Below, in pieces: positions 46,366 through 50,174 of a DNA stretch of 64,000 bases. The stretch is from assembly GCA_963847595.1 (NCBI GenBank), contig CAWKAJ010000002.1, forward strand, positions 77,068-141,067, in the 5' to 3' direction. The stretch is from an uncultured Chloroflexia bacterium. Lineage in GTDB: Bacteria > Chloroflexota > Dehalococcoidia > SZUA-161. Under the pieces are notes generated by a model. That model was given only the letters and a program-made list of their open reading frames with translations, was not told the origin of the DNA and made no database searches. The position numbers and the translations under genes were made by a program. Position 1 is the stretch's first letter. Every line of letters starts with the position of its first letter.

Positions 46366-46629
46366 TTAGCCCGAGTGATGCTGCATGATGTTCGCAAGGG
46401 CACTAAGGATACCGCCGAAGTTCTGCAGCAGAGGGCCGAGATGGTTAATCAAAGGTGCGAAGGCCAGGTTGAATACCATTGTTGAGCCACTGGCTGCTCC
46501 GAACCCTGAATAAGGACTGTTGAGGATGTCTTGTGCGTTCATCCCGAGGCGTGTGCCGGTCTCCATAAGTATGGTGCCAAGTGTACTCAGATAGCCTATG
46601 ATTGATTCTAACACCTGTTCCACCCCCAT
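46366..46629 (-). CDS. Small hydrophobic protein, member B of a 4-member local paralog family
   Basis: 87 aa (MGVEQVLESII...PLINHLGPLLQNFGGILSALANIM). It shares the N-terminal MG(I/V)LE..(D/E)Q/S and C-terminal N.LG...L..FL..L pattern with the ORFs at 47128, 48653 and 49835. Confidence 0.45.
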   Translation of the reverse strand: MGVEQVLESIIGYLSTLGTILMETGTRLGMNAQDILNSPYSGFGAASGSTMVFNLAFAPLINHLGPLLQNFGGILSALANIMQHHSG

Positions 46630-46989
46630 TTCCCTGTAAGTTTGGTTTTTTGCCTCACCAAATCATTTAACTATGCTTGGAGGCCTGACACATCATGGGG
46701 ACTCTCATTTTATGTAGTAGGGATGGCTCTGGAAAAAGTGTTACCTAGTTACGAGTTTGCCTTGGCCACGGTTCGTGGTTTTACGCAGTGGGGGTGAACT
46801 AAGGTACTCTCTGAGAAATGGCTCTCTGGTGCTTGTTCAAGGATGAAGGGAAAATAGAAGAAGCTTTGATTTGAGGTGGGCGTATCGGTAGGTGCGAAAA
46901 TCCGCAGTTTCCGGTTCGGCTTTGTAACTTTCAGGGTGCCATTATGATAGGTTAGCTTTGGATCCGGTGCCGATTAGCCGTCTTTGAAT

Positions 46990-47022
46990 AAAGGAAAGGG
47001 GGAGACTCTCCCCCTTTCCTTT
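46990..47022 (-). terminator. Perfect hairpin ~105 nt downstream of the small gene 47128..47343
   Basis: aaaggaaaggggga-gactc-tccccctttccttt. The minus-strand continuation (attcaaaga) is only weakly T-rich. A homologous hairpin is at 49693..49723. Confidence 0.4.
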
Positions 47023-47127
47023 ATCGTACTGAAGCTTCAAGGACACTTCGAGCCGTAACCTATTGAAGTGGCGCGAACCTTGCTCGCAAAATTAGAACTT
47101 GCCCAGCCGAGTATCCGGGCTCACCGC

Positions 47128-47343
47128 CTAGAGAGCACTCAGGAAGTTAGCTAATCCAGTGCAAATGGCGCCCAGATTAGTGACCCAAGGCATAACAAAA
47201 CCTGTGAGAGCCGCGGTGGACAATGGCATAGGTCCCCCATACTGAGCAGGCATGTTGACCGTAAGGCTCAGCAAGGTACCCATCTGGGCCAAGGACGGTG
47301 AAAATGCCGCGGCCAATTGGTCAAGACTTTCAAGTATACCCAT
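47128..47343 (-). CDS. Small hydrophobic protein A1 (paralog family)
   Basis: 71 aa with a strong SD (AAAGGAGGTGAGAAC-N-ATG). It is ~70% identical to the 49835..50047 product and lies within a ~380-bp duplicated module. Confidence 0.55.
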   Translation of the reverse strand: MGILESLDQLAAAFSPSLAQMGTLLSLTVNMPAQYGGPMPLSTAALTGFVMPWVTNLGAICTGLANFLSAL

Positions 47344-47590
47344 TAGTTCTCACCTCCTTTCTTTAGGTTGCGGCTTCCTTAGTGAGAGAGCCTTTTGATG
47401 AGAAGTGTAACGTGACAGAAGATGGGCAACAATCACCTTTACGTCCTATTCAGTAGTGTACTATAGTCCTCCCCGGCGAAGGCGGTCTGGATGTGAAACC
47501 ACTATTAGGGGTCGGTCAATGACGGCGTGTGGAGTAAAACGAAGGAGCCTTTAAGCGGAAATTACGAGGGGAATTAGCCGCCTTTCAGGG

Positions 47591-48520
47591 CTACTGGGGG
47601 AGCTTCCATCTGGCTATCACAGGAGGGTTGCTCATGCTATCAAGAAGGTAGGAAACTTCCATCCCTGAAGCTGATATTGGCACTATCCATAGGATGTTGC
47701 CGGTGACTGTTACCTTGGGCGACAGACTAGCATTTGGGTACGGGCTGCTAAAGCTGTAGTCCCCGTACGTTTCGTCATTGTATGAATGCCCTGCGGAGTC
47801 GGTGAGCAAGAAATACGATGGTCCTGTCAAGAAAGAAGTGTTGCTGATGTTCTTGCATGTCACCGTTATGAATATGAAGGCCTTTCCGGGAGGCGCCTTG
47901 ACGGTCTCGCCGAATGAACTGCTGTACGAGGTCTTTTCTTCTGCTAAGGAGACTGTAATGTTTCCGCCCCCTGTTGCCAATATGTTTTCCCCTATGTCAA
48001 AATACTTAACAACAGCATTGGCGGGCATCGGAACTGGCGTAGAGAGAGGCACTGATGTTGTTGGTTTGGAGACGCATGAGTAGATGCCCCAGGAAGGCAA
48101 CCCAATAACTAACAGGAGAGATGTTATAAGGATTACCCTTCCCCAAATACAAAGGCCGGTTGGCCGAGGACGGTCTTCTGCCGATGGCTCTTGCGGGGGG
48201 TTTTGCCTTGCCTTTGGTTTGAGCTCTGGCTTTGGTTGTGTTATTGCGTTGGGTTGTGGTGTTGGTACCAGTTTGGGCTGTAGCTGCGGCGCTGGCTTAG
48301 ATTGTGATAATGGTTTTGGCTCTAGGGTCGGTTGGGGTGGGGGTGGAGGTTTTGGTGTAGAAGGTGTTCCAAATGGCAGGAATGCATCACAGGATCTGGT
48401 ATCGGCTCTAACCTGCATTCTATATTTAACGCCTGCATGTTTCGCAGTAGTACAATTGAAAAACTTATCGCCTTTTTTCGGCTTGAAGTTTTGACACTTG
48501 CCGCAGATGTTGCTACTCAT
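47591..48520 (-). CDS. Membrane-anchored secreted protein: N-terminal zinc-ribbon, Pro-rich linker, TM helix, C-terminal DUF4352-like beta domain
   Basis: CGKCQNF...C...C, then PKPPPPPQPTLEPKP... repeats, a TM helix (ILITSLLLVIGL), and a C-terminal domain with NIT/NIS/NTS/NAS sequons. Confidence 0.55.
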   Translation of the reverse strand: MSSNICGKCQNFKPKKGDKFFNCTTAKHAGVKYRMQVRADTRSCDAFLPFGTPSTPKPPPPPQPTLEPKPLSQSKPAPQLQPKLVPTPQPNAITQPKPELKPKARQNPPQEPSAEDRPRPTGLCIWGRVILITSLLLVIGLPSWGIYSCVSKPTTSVPLSTPVPMPANAVVKYFDIGENILATGGGNITVSLAEEKTSYSSSFGETVKAPPGKAFIFITVTCKNISNTSFLTGPSYFLLTDSAGHSYNDETYGDYSFSSPYPNASLSPKVTVTGNILWIVPISASGMEVSYLLDSMSNPPVIARWKLPQ

Positions 48521-48652
48521 GACCTGCTGCTTACGGGCTGGATCATAGCATTATTGCTTAAAGAGCTTAAGTCATCTATGGGTTGCCCCATATTGTCAAC
48601 ACGCAGTTTCTCTCACGAATTAAGCGGCTGACGTAGATACTTTGGGGGTTGG

Positions 48653-48847
48653 CTAAGATATTGGATTATGCGTCGCTATATTCGCCAGGAACTGCGCCAA
48701 GGATACTGCATCATGTGCCAGACCATTGACAAGGTGAGAACCCATGGGCGTCAGCGGCTGGGAAGGCCCTAGGGTCACTAAACCACTGAGGGAGTTGTTG
48801 ACTACGTTCAGCGCGCTTACTATGAGACTCGCCATGGAATGTGGCAT
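48653..48847 (-). CDS. Small hydrophobic protein, member C of the paralog family
   Basis: Start chosen at MPHSMASLIV (64 aa), preceded by AAGGAAAG. The C-terminal LVNGLAHDAVSLAQFLANIA fits the family pattern. The longer ORF annotation starts at 48895. Confidence 0.45.
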   Translation of the reverse strand: MPHSMASLIVSALNVVNNSLSGLVTLGPSQPLTPMGSHLVNGLAHDAVSLAQFLANIATHNPIS

Positions 48848-49066
48848 GATAGTCTTTCCTTTAATAATATCAGGGTAATACACATAGCATAACACGATTA
48901 TGAGAATTGTTCAACGCAAGTATTGCCTCCCCTTATCAAATAGCTAGAACAAACTCCAAAATTGGGAGCTAAAGTTAATATGATGATAGATTAGTAAACA
49001 ATCGGAGTCTCTTTTGCTCTGCGGAATGCCGCCTGATAGCTAATCCGTTTTGTGCTGGTTCGATTA

Positions 49067-49642
49067 CTAGGGGATCTGCCACACGCCCCGCACAGGCGTC
49101 GAACCCTGCAAAAGGCAGGAGAGCTCAAGGCCCGTAGCCGTTGCAAGCGGGTTAAACGCGATGTAACCATAGGCGCTCTGGCCGGTAGCAAGTTTCCGGC
49201 TGGGATAGGGGTTAACTCCCGGGTAGCCGATGCAAGGCCACACACGACCTTGTGCGTCCTTCATGCTGAAATCCTTGTAGGATATGGCCAACGAGCTGCT
49301 CTGCCCCACATTGGTGACTGAGAGTTCTACGACTACCAATATGGTGCCAGGTGCTGCTATTTCGAAGGTTTTGAAAAGCCGACCCAGTCCTACGGGTGTC
49401 TTAATCTCGCTCACTCTCTGAGTGGAGATGACGGTAAGTACTTCCCGCGAGGTCTCCGCGGGTTGCCCTATCTGGTAGTAGACGTTCATAGCAGGTGGAG
49501 GCTTGCTGCCGCCACAACCCGACCCCGAGGCGAGCATCAGGGCCAGGATACCTGTAAGCACTATCGCTGGGAGGATTACTCTTGTGACGCGCCCTATCAA
49601 CGCAGAAGAAACCATTTTTGTGGCTTTATCCTTCTTAGCCAA
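49067..49642 (-). CDS. Lipoprotein with DUF4352-like domain
   Basis: The signal peptide has a lipobox (LASGSGC). A beta-rich domain follows (ILVVVELSVTNVGQSS...YGYIAFN), similar to the C-terminal domain of the 47591..48520 product. Confidence 0.6.
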   Translation of the reverse strand: MAKKDKATKMVSSALIGRVTRVILPAIVLTGILALMLASGSGCGGSKPPPAMNVYYQIGQPAETSREVLTVISTQRVSEIKTPVGLGRLFKTFEIAAPGTILVVVELSVTNVGQSSSLAISYKDFSMKDAQGRVWPCIGYPGVNPYPSRKLATGQSAYGYIAFNPLATATGLELSCLLQGSTPVRGVWQIP

Positions 49643-49692
49643 TATTATAACAGATTTATTTCAAAGCCTTAGTACCATTGCCGCGCTAAGTT

Positions 49693-49723
49693 AAAGAAGG
49701 GGAGGATAATCCTCCCCTTCTTT
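49693..49723 (-). terminator. Hairpin ~110 nt downstream of small gene 49835..50047
   Basis: aaagaaggggagga-taat-cctccccttcttt. It is homologous in position and sequence context to the hairpin at 46990..47022. Confidence 0.4.
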
Positions 49724-49834
49724 ACCGTCTCTCTGAAGCTCCAAGGACGCTTCAGTGCAACACATATTACTAAAATCGCGCGAACCTCGTTCGCAAAAAT
49801 TATAACCTGCTCAGCCGATTGTCCCGGCACACGC

Positions 49835-50047
49835 CTAGAGGGAATTAAGGAAGCTAGCTAACGCAGTGAGAATGCTGCCCAGGTTATTGACCCAAGGCAT
49901 AACAAAACCAGTCAGAGCCGCGGTGGACAACGGCATAGCTCCATATGGCGCAGGCATATTGACTACGGCGCCCAGCAAGCCACCCATCTGGGTCAGGGAC
50001 GGCACAATTGACGCGATCAACTGATCAATAGTCTCTAATATACCCAT
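49835..50047 (-). CDS. Small hydrophobic protein A2 (paralog family)
   Basis: 70 aa with a strong SD (GGAAGGAGGTGAGAAC). A near-consensus promoter lies upstream. Confidence 0.55.
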   Translation of the reverse strand: MGILETIDQLIASIVPSLTQMGGLLGAVVNMPAPYGAMPLSTAALTGFVMPWVNNLGSILTALASFLNSL

Positions 50048-50145
50048 TTGTTCTCACCTCCTTCCCTTGCGCTCAGGCTCCCCCCTTGGAAGGAAGCTTA
50101 GAGCAACTTCCTTAGTACTACGGGAGTAGTACTAACTTACTACGA

Positions 50146-50174
50146 AATATAGCAACTTTAGTACTAGTTGTCAA
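50146..50174 (-). promoter_or_regulatory. Near-consensus sigma-70 promoter for small gene A2 (TTGACA-17-TATATT)
   Basis: The minus-strand sequence is ttgacaACTAGTACTAAAGTTGCtatatt, about 95 nt upstream of the ATG at 50047. Confidence 0.5.

Follow-up and report, generated by a model that had tools for sequence, protein, structure and literature searches.

Two putative families of small helical proteins within a variable surface-protein locus of uncultured Dehalococcoidia

Small helical proteins and variable surface loci in other bacteria

Allelic surface cassettes, such as O-antigen, capsule and glycosylation islands and pilin or flagellin type loci, occupy a fixed site with conserved flanks and carry deeply divergent glycosyltransferase and surface-protein alleles in otherwise near-identical genomes. 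We analysed a locus whose behaviour resembles, by analogy, that of such cassettes, in a 64,000-nt stretch of DNA (the window; contig CAWKAJ010000002.1 of assembly GCA_963847595.1, positions 77,068 to 141,067) from an uncultured Dehalococcoidia bacterium whose genome is one 1.75-Mb contig. The locus contains four small open reading frames (ORFs), here called S1 to S4, which a preliminary description had picked out as a family that it did not recognise. Their products constitute two previously undescribed small-protein families, A (S1, S2 and S4) and B (S3), found so far only in uncultured Dehalococcoidia, and it is this pair of families, with an unusual population-genetic and regulatory signature, that is new here; that they have a role in the cell envelope is put forward tentatively. 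Two features set the locus apart from known cassettes: its most divergent parts are the two copies of a leaderless small hairpin protein, and a strongly conserved promoter and leader sits inside the variable block.

The corynebacterial proteins PorA and PorH, which are very small, leaderless, acidic and amphipathic helical envelope proteins poor in Lys and Arg and encoded by tandem genes, are a precedent for envelope subunits that do not depend on Sec. Their composition is comparable to that of S1 to S4 (PorA/PorH, ESAT-6 and AtpE served as controls in the composition and membrane-insertion comparisons), but we found no sequence similarity, and S1 to S4 are longer, two-helix hairpins. The corynebacterial pair works in an outer membrane of mycolic acids and is modified by O-mycoloylation, neither of which is known from Dehalococcoidia.

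The WXG100/ESAT-6-like proteins (PF06013) share with the small proteins a helix-turn-helix hairpin of about 100 aa. However, the PF06013 profile did not match S1 to S4 at E ≤ 1 or 24 diverse members at E ≤ 10, the loop has no conserved W-x-G, and the Trp of the second arm is Leu or Phe in the S1 type and several others. The small proteins are also much more hydrophobic and nearly without Lys and Arg, and no type VII secretion genes were found in the annotated parts of the window or within ~10 kb in related loci. Among bacteriocins, those of the leaderless and class II kinds are likewise small amphipathic helical peptides with strong expression signals, a hairpin after the gene and variable alleles beside membrane-protein genes; the proteins described here differ in being anionic (pI 4.1-6.4), in lacking any family match and in having neither an ABC/C39 exporter in the locus nor a co-transcribed immunity gene. 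The c-subunits (proteolipids) of F/V-ATPases are ~70-aa hydrophobic helical hairpins too, and were among the top Foldseek matches, which were non-significant (E > 1). They differ in membrane insertion, as the minimum 19-residue apparent insertion free energy (Hessa dGapp) was +3.8 to +5.9 kcal/mol for S1 to S4, too polar to insert, vs -0.5 for a c-subunit, and the small proteins lack both a conserved carboxylate and an atp operon context.

Collagen_mid (PF15984) is the ordered domain of putative Burkholderia surface lipoprotein adhesins named 'Bcc-CLP' (PMC10224339). All four of the 121/122-aa members of family A matched the last ~55 positions of this domain (~137-198; E 1e-6 to 7e-3, 17-29 bits; Table 1), and the match was order-specific, with 0 matches from 8 shuffles plus the reversed sequence. 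It was nevertheless sub-threshold, with a best score of 28.9 bits vs a gathering cutoff of 31.1 and about a quarter of the ~198-position domain covered, and it was confined to this subtype, with no match for S1 to S4. Both have a surface-protein context, but family A lacks the GTS repeats and the lipobox, and we regard PF15984 as a remote-homology lead rather than as a membership. A tblastn search of the 122-aa type against plasmids gave chance matches only.

Four small genes and their products

The four ORFs were found where the preliminary description had placed them, all on the minus strand (Table 1), and the start of S1 was revised. The Shine-Dalgarno sequence (SD) of this gene, GGGGGTGG, lies between the upstream ATG and the GTG at 46614, and in L008, L006 and L005 (L-numbers denote related contigs from metagenomes or metagenome-assembled genomes, MAGs) the in-frame codon directly 5' of the GTG is a TAG stop, for which reasons we take the GTG as the start; the 87-aa ATG extension is probably not used. 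The database orthologues of S1 are in most cases 82 aa long. It follows that the 'MG.LE' N-terminus, by which S1 had been likened to the other proteins, is an artefact in S1, although its homology to S2 and S4 stands.

Orthologues of each small gene were found at 66-89% identity in independent metagenome contigs, ~20 of which carry orthologues, and where these are divergent their length changes by in-frame indels. Values of dN/dS, calculated with a Nei-Gojobori script, were 0.18-0.26 for S1, 0.23-0.65 for S2/S4 and 0.48-0.82 for S3, and the dS of S1 (0.38-0.44) was that of the genome background. The SDs, promoters and terminator hairpins keep their position across lineages and the hairpins differ in sequence. 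Taken together, we judge all four ORFs to be genuine conserved protein genes. The preliminary description had named a lack of coding conservation, or a match to a known family, as findings that would count against it; we instead found coding conservation (dN/dS 0.18-0.82) and no library match. It should be noted that the exact 64-aa S3 sequence was recorded only from Logan gene calls, the other three being recorded in NCBI/ENA sources, and S3 thus appears to be unannotated in the NCBI/ENA sources of its own genome, an example of how small proteins without an export signal can escape annotation. The S1 orthologue of L023 (7962-8251) is broken up into two ORFs that overlap, through either a frameshift (a pseudogene) or an assembly error.

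The proposal that the four proteins form one family was upheld for S1, S2 and S4. S2 and S4 are 70% identical, as had been estimated. S1 shares ~27% pairwise identity with S2/S4 (hhalign E 6e-5), and the link is firm once the 75-122-aa proteins at equivalent positions in sister genomes, which bridge S1 and S2/S4 and were retrieved by a profile of window-type sequences, are added; the L008 motif 'MSTIAFNIFAGPWIDQLG', for example, is intermediate between 'STMVFNLAFAPLINHLG' of S1 and 'LSTAALTGFVMPWVTNLG' of S2. Family A, with a length range of 51-122 aa, has the consensus M-L-x-x-L-x-x-L...(M/T)-G-x-x-L, followed by a variable loop, S-T-x-A-F-x-x-F-x-x-P-W-(V/I)-x-x-L-G...F-L-x-x-L and, in some members, a C-terminal extension. 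G22 and P52 were invariant in an alignment of diverse members, and the variation among types lies mostly in the loop and the C-terminal extension. S3, which the preliminary description had counted as a distant member, resembles family A in size and composition. Its independent profile gave no cross-match with S1/S2/S4 (E > 1; hhalign probability 0.2-1.2%), and with a profile lacking S3-types the L008 S3-type ORF was listed at E 1.6 and the other S3-types were unlisted at E ≤ 10, the reverse profile behaving likewise and hhalign assigning a probability of 0.4%. As independent profiles and hhalign give no match, we treated S3 as a second family, B.

The remark that the family could not be recognised also holds. 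Searches of the four proteins against Pfam, NCBIfam, PHROGs, PADLOC and PDB sequences, and of 24 diverse members against Pfam and NCBIfam, gave nothing above threshold. A profile search of 1.84 billion representative proteins produced 16 matches, 3 of which were spurious (TPR or repeat giants), and every inspected contig with a match carried the S1-S4 locus or a variant of it and belonged to uncultured Dehalococcoidia. Among genome-collection contigs, the S2/S4 profile had no match and the S1 profile a single one, in one Dehalococcoidia MAG; three scans of IMG/VR found no viral relatives of the small proteins and a profile search found no further family members in the window.

In L005 (3412-4917, a Dehalococcoidia MAG) an S1 orthologue lies in another context, with an unrelated 74-aa helical ORF upstream, a membrane protein of the PorA/DUF3068 (CD36-like) family and a MarR regulator downstream, and an IS3-like transposase fragment adjoining. 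The 1-kb contig L010 (270-820) carries tandem members of 85 and 75 aa which are acidic and more hydrophilic, with 8-11 Asp+Glu each, and which have a promoter-like site and a strong SD for each gene; this pair suggests that the family fold can be soluble.

AlphaFold2 predicted a helical hairpin for both S2 (helices 3-29, 43-55 and 57-70; pLDDT 80.7) and S1 (helices 2-27 and 49-85; pLDDT 78.4), and the sequence pattern of S3 is probably also that of a helix-loop-helix. The small proteins have a grand average of hydropathy (GRAVY) of +0.5 to +1.0, a pI of 4.1-6.4, 0 Lys, 0-1 Arg and a net charge of -2 to 0. Combined with a polar face on which the residues are small and uncharged, this composition is not typical of a protein that is soluble as a monomer. 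In agreement with the preliminary description, no transmembrane (TM) segment was found in S1 to S4, their dGapp being well above that of real TM and signal segments of neighbour proteins (-0.7 to +0.1), nor did any of the four have a signal peptide or lipobox. Helix 1 has a 3-4 hydrophobic repeat, and in the L010 relatives Asp and Glu occupy its polar face. An amphipathic bundle-forming fold is therefore favoured over a TM hairpin, which we rejected on account of the high dGapp and of the charges that the L010 relatives place inside the helices.

Further candidates were also rejected: a signal peptide, as the N-terminal region is acidic; a double-glycine leader, as only G22 is invariant, the next residue being G/T/L/A/Q/D/N/F and positions -4 and -7 polar; a holin, as dGapp is ≥ +3.8, the C-termini are uncharged and hydrophobic rather than charged and hydrophilic, neither lysin nor phage genes lie alongside and no PHROG matched; and N-glycosylation of the small proteins, as they have no conserved sequon.

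Allelic divergence and regulatory signals

Every contig that was long enough had the same gene order: ADH, RDD, GT-C (divergent), a family A gene, the DUF4352 lipoprotein gene, S3, the Zn-ribbon TM DUF4352 gene, a second family A gene, S1, the FN3 gene and gyrA. On this gene order, we consider the locus to be a fixed core-chromosomal site of one Dehalococcoidia lineage and not a repeated mobile two-gene module. The reported pairing of each small gene with a gene for an exported protein thus comes down to a single, rigidly syntenic locus.

Within this locus, a cassette reaching from S2 to RDD (Table 1) was deeply divergent between genomes whose flanking genes (ADH beyond RDD; S1, FN3 and gyrA beyond S2) were at background divergence. 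Amino acid identity to the window was 96-98% for gyrA (dS 0.22-0.29), 94% for ADH (dS 0.36-0.43), 81-89% for S1 (dS 0.38-0.44) and 71-81% for FN3 (dS 0.49-0.82), vs 48-61% for GT-C (dS 1.1-1.5), 50-58% for RDD (dS 1.0-1.1), 39-57% for the DUF4352 lipoprotein (dS 0.8-1.5), 36-56% for S3 (dS 0.9 to saturated) and 28-50% in local alignments for the proteins at the S4 and S2 positions (dS 1.6 to saturated). Between types, the S4/S2-type proteins share 20-35% identity in global alignments. Overall, dS in the cassette ranged from 0.7 to saturated, vs ~0.2-0.4 in the flanks, with a dN/dS of 0.26-0.44. The block thus consists of ancient alleles under purifying selection that were exchanged among close relatives, and fast evolution alone does not describe it.

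We found at least 5 types of the S4/S2 protein (66-71, 75, 82-86 in two groups and 121-122 aa), and each genome carries two copies of the same type. The two copies were 70, 66, 69, 61, 87, 68, 41 and 84% identical in eight loci, that is 61-87% in 7 of the 8 and 41% in L023.

The preliminary description had credited the small genes with consensus promoters, strong SDs and hairpin terminators. This is true of S4, whose promoter is the only near-consensus one and whose reported promoter spacing and SD (GGAGGTGA) we confirmed, an extended TG being present as well. S2 has a strong SD and hairpin and a conserved -10 (TATAGT) but a poor -35. S3 has a weaker SD than S4 and S2 and no strong hairpin before the Zn-ribbon gene; counterparts of its promoter were seen in L008 (TTGACC-17-TATCTT) and L012 (TTGAAC-17-TATTCT). 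Across lineages, genes at the S4 position have TTGACA-17-TATnnT with TG, a ~91-nt leader, a strong SD and a GC-rich hairpin ~100 nt past the stop, which keeps its position and varies in sequence, and genes at the S2 position have the -10 TATAGT, a degenerate copy of the S4 leader and a strong hairpin. The hairpin after S2 looks like an intrinsic bidirectional terminator, and equivalent hairpins of different sequence occur in L001, L002, L006, L008 and L012. The duplicated module of ~380 bp with its perfect hairpins, described earlier around S2 and S4, was recovered at ~380-400 nt and ~80% nucleotide identity, running from ~12 nt 5' of the SD to ~150 nt past the stop. Judging from these signals, S4 is predicted to be the most highly expressed small gene, and the S4 and S2 products would be made in large amounts.

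The promoter and leader are more conserved than the protein that they precede: mean nucleotide identity among loci was 80% over the 140 nt upstream of the S4-position gene (promoter and leader), vs 54% in the coding sequence and 62% in the 3' region. Aligned across loci, the S4 leader has a structure of 19 pairs, 3 of which show compensatory changes. A palindrome, TAGTACTA, occurs three times in this region and nowhere else in the 64 kb (0.37 expected; 0/100 shuffles reach 3), once in the spacer between -35 and -10 and twice in the leader, where the two copies pair as a 5' hairpin with compensatory changes. Its placement is identical in related loci, and the promoter and leader bearing it were also seen in L002, L006, L008, L011/L012, L021, L022 and L023. 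A covariance model of the S4 leader found the S4 leaders in 9 loci at 86-106 bits and, more weakly, the S2 leader (47344-47439, E 0.04; its L008 counterpart 8.6e-6), its matches being confined to these two kinds of leader. With Rfam there was nothing real over the window at the gathering threshold and nothing over 46000-50500 at E ≤ 1. The S4 leader with its TAGTACTA boxes is thus a candidate new cis-regulatory leader and/or operator, and the position of the boxes in a conserved promoter may suggest tight regulation.

Each small gene had been described as lying upstream of a gene for an exported protein. This does not apply to S2, after which S1 comes next, and elsewhere it holds as rigid synteny rather than as operon pairing. 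S4 and S2 are cut off by strong terminators, and the lipoprotein gene has a TGnTATAAT promoter of its own just after the S4 terminator (49644-49652), kept in L008 and L012, from which we conclude that the pairing is one of synteny. S3 is the only one of the four that is probably co-transcribed with its downstream neighbour, the Zn-ribbon TM DUF4352 gene; in L015 and L022 the stop-to-stop ORFs of the two genes are separated by 3 nt, with no terminator between them.

Table 1 Features of the locus. Positions are those of the window except in the last two rows, where they are those of the contig named
Feature	Position	Strand	Description
S1	46366-46614 (46629 with ATG extension)	-	Family A, 82 aa from GTG; best-conserved member; outside the variable cassette
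S2	47128-47343	-	Family A, 71 aa; second copy of the variable type ('S2 position')
S3	48653-48847	-	Family B, 64 aa
S4	49835-50047	-	Family A, 70 aa; first copy of the variable type ('S4 position')
Variable cassette	47128-53156		S2, Zn-ribbon DUF4352, S3, lipoprotein DUF4352, S4, GT-C, RDD
S4 promoter	50146-50174	-	TTGACA-17-TATATT, 11/12, extended TG; conserved in L002, L006, L008, L012 and the L010 variant
S4 leader	50048-50138	-	~91 nt, conserved, structured, two stem-loops, ends in perfect SD GGAGGTGA
S4 terminator-like hairpin	49692-49724	-	Perfect 16-bp palindrome, T-rich tail, ~100 nt past stop, dG -25.4
S2 leader and promoter region	47344-47465	-	Conserved GGACTATAGTAC, -10 TATAGT at 47460-47465, degenerate S4-type leader
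S2 terminator-like hairpin	46988-47024	-	Perfect 18-bp palindrome, T-rich tail, ~100 nt past stop, dG -29.6
S3 promoter	48886-48914	-	TTGAAC-17-TATGCT, extended TG, 38 nt before ATG
Palindrome TAGTACTA (x3)	50113-50120, 50127-50134, 50159-50166		Only occurrences in 64 kb
DUF4352 lipoprotein-like gene	49067-49642	-	182-191 aa, start uncertain; PF11611 E 0.0025 (below cutoff)
Zn-ribbon, Pro-rich linker, TM and DUF4352 protein	47591-48520	-	309 aa, directly downstream of S3; PF11611 1.6e-8; TM dGapp -0.73
Secreted three-FN3 protein	44652-46166	-	Downstream of S1; sequon-rich; conserved amphipathic C-terminal tail
GT-C glycosyltransferase	50414-52237	+	Divergent from S4; weak similarity to Dpy19 and AglB core; start codon uncertain
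121/122-aa members with PF15984 match	5581-5949, 9062-9427		L006
121/122-aa members with PF15984 match	3984-4352, 7073-7441		L022

Possible roles and neighbouring genes

Dehalococcoidia are reported to lack peptidoglycan, and our search of the literature on their envelope gave no account of the components that build and anchor it. The locus gives concrete candidates, namely two undescribed small-protein families between an enzyme like an oligosaccharyltransferase, immunoglobulin (Ig)-like membrane proteins and a sequon-rich glycoprotein. It is a likely point of contact with phages or neighbouring cells for this lineage, which is uncultured and abundant in sediments, because it combines an ancient allelic cassette, set in genomes that are otherwise nearly identical, with two copies of one type per genome and with a promoter and leader that are far better conserved than the protein downstream.

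We tentatively propose that the S4/S2-type small proteins are abundant self-assembling envelope subunits which partner the neighbouring surface proteins. By packing of their hairpins, the S4/S2 products would assemble themselves into helical bundles, located at or on the cytoplasmic membrane of a wall-less bacterium, S4/S2 and S3 would partner the co-varying DUF4352 proteins, and S1 would partner the conserved amphipathic C-terminal tail of the FN3 glycoprotein. Such an assembly would be exposed to phages or neighbour cells, and its distinct types would be maintained by diversifying selection. This is the best fit to the locus because the genes look abundantly and separately transcribed, the hairpin is bundle-forming and has an uncharged surface, the locus is one of surface glycoproteins, and the deep allelic cassette holds two same-type copies. 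Among the roles suggested in the preliminary description, that of a 'sheath or S-layer-associated subunit' fits the evidence best. Since Sec, lipoprotein or TM signals are present in the neighbours themselves, a 'dedicated export chaperone' is unlikely, and the 'bacteriocin-like' role is weakened by the anionic charge and by the lack of a transporter within ~10 kb.

Several points weigh against an envelope role. The chief weakness is that a signal peptide, a TM segment and a lipobox are all missing from the small proteins and that none of the loci has genes for secretion or assembly within ~10 kb, so an extracytoplasmic location is unsupported. The small genes might be hypervariable only by hitch-hiking, with the GT-C or DUF4352 genes as the real target of selection. 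The acidic L010 relatives look soluble, and the high expression assumed here is read from consensus signals. We are more doubtful still about a fuller version, in which the hairpin proteins would be the major self-assembling, type-variable surface or membrane-coat subunit of a peptidoglycan-less Dehalococcoidia lineage, exported or inserted without a signal peptide and docked to the DUF4352/FN3 glycoproteins, with types under phage- or kin-driven balancing selection and expression controlled via the leader RNA and the TAGTACTA operator. If true, this would add a new kind of building block to those from which bacterial envelopes are made.

The small proteins could instead be leaderless secreted membrane-active peptides, acting as a bacteriocin-like toxin or a kin-recognition signal, with the DUF4352 membrane proteins as type-specific immunity proteins or receptors and the allelic cassette as the outcome of their co-diversification. 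This would suit small, amphipathic, helical products of terminator-bounded genes with strong expression signals, deep allelic types that co-vary with the neighbouring membrane proteins, and the tight regulation suggested by the palindromic boxes. We nevertheless consider it unlikely: class II and leaderless bacteriocins are cationic, whereas the small proteins have a net charge of -2 to 0, lack Lys and contain one Arg at most, an ABC or C39 exporter was not found within ~10 kb, a strong terminator and a separate promoter stand between the 'toxin' and the 'immunity' gene, Pfam and NCBIfam gave no match with their bacteriocin models included, and two same-type copies are hard to account for.

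A cytoplasmic role, in which the small proteins would partner or regulate the membrane proteins encoded next to them, is rather improbable; S3, for example, could bind the cytoplasmic Zn-ribbon, and family A could form cytoplasmic or membrane-peripheral scaffolds. Cytosolic proteins seldom have a GRAVY as high as +0.5 to +1.0 or uncharged surfaces, deep divergence into alleles is more often seen in components that are exposed, and S4 and S2 are transcribed independently of their neighbours. Against this must be set the lack of an export signal, the soluble appearance of the acidic L010 relatives, and the position of S3, which abuts the Zn-ribbon DUF4352 gene with no terminator between and with the 3-nt ORF gap seen in L015 and L022.

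Two further explanations seem very unlikely to us. The first is an anti-phage exclusion module, in which membrane DUF4352 proteins and the small hairpins would block phage entry and an arms race would drive the turnover of types. Mpr is a membrane-bound mycobacterial phage-resistance protein with DUF4352 as its functional core (PMC12596739, PMC9262609). Both DUF4352 proteins of the locus match the phage family phrog_806 and the cassette is hypervariable, but DUF4352 is a generic Ig-like fold, no component had a PADLOC match, the small proteins have no relatives in IMG/VR, and the site is a fixed core-chromosomal locus beside glycosylation genes rather than a defence island.

In the second, the small proteins would serve, as WXG100 proteins do, as substrates or adaptors of a specialised (type VII-like) secretion system whose genes lie in another part of the genome. 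Several observations speak against it: PF06013 gave no match even at E ≤ 10, the turn has no W-x-G and the conserved Trp lies in P-W-(V/I)-x-x-L-G of the second arm, the proteins are far more hydrophobic than ESAT-6, no EssC/FtsK-like gene was found in the annotated parts of the window or within ~10 kb in related loci, and EsxB was one among hundreds of generic hairpin matches. Finally, that the ORFs are spurious or non-functional, as their short, low-complexity, hydrophobic sequences and the absence of S3 from the NCBI/ENA sources of this genome might suggest, has next to no chance of being right and is effectively refuted by the ~20 contigs, in-frame indels, dN/dS < 1 and conserved SDs, promoters and terminators.

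The neighbouring genes include surface-protein and glycosylation genes. The FN3 protein downstream of S1 has 18 N-x-S/T sequons vs 7.7 expected, and inspection of its sequence by eye (no predictor was run) revealed no TM anchor, lipobox or sorting motif. Its C-terminal tail (44652-44820, ~55 codons), ...WSTKYxDR...LVGTGVGxIIAEILAKIMILIANIRALGTPYF, is strongly conserved in 7 lineages, in which it is amphipathic and not TM (dGapp 4.5-6.0). Homology of this tail to family A was rejected (HMM E 4.6); a docking helix for S1 is a possible function. The presence of this sequon-rich protein near the GT-C gene suggests protein N-glycosylation in this bacterium. The GT-C protein of L012 (21-1733) has a weak STT3 match too, and L011 and L012 have two GT-C genes in tandem. 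Further surface-glycan genes were seen to the right of the cassette (54927-60297), with genes for a PA14-domain protein, for a methyltransferase and for glycosyltransferases of the GT2 and GT1 families.

On the other side of the locus, a ~12.5-kb insertion (32000-44650) separates gyrA from the FN3 gene, two genes which abut in L006 and L008. It carries genes for two large primase-like proteins, of 913 aa (DnaG Zn-finger, DNAG_N) and 841 aa (Toprim_2), for a DNA-binding protein and for a MazF-like toxin accompanied by a small partner. The GC content changes from 0.46 to 0.58-0.62, and we saw neither a tRNA nor an integrase. The insertion probably represents a mobile element that has integrated here.

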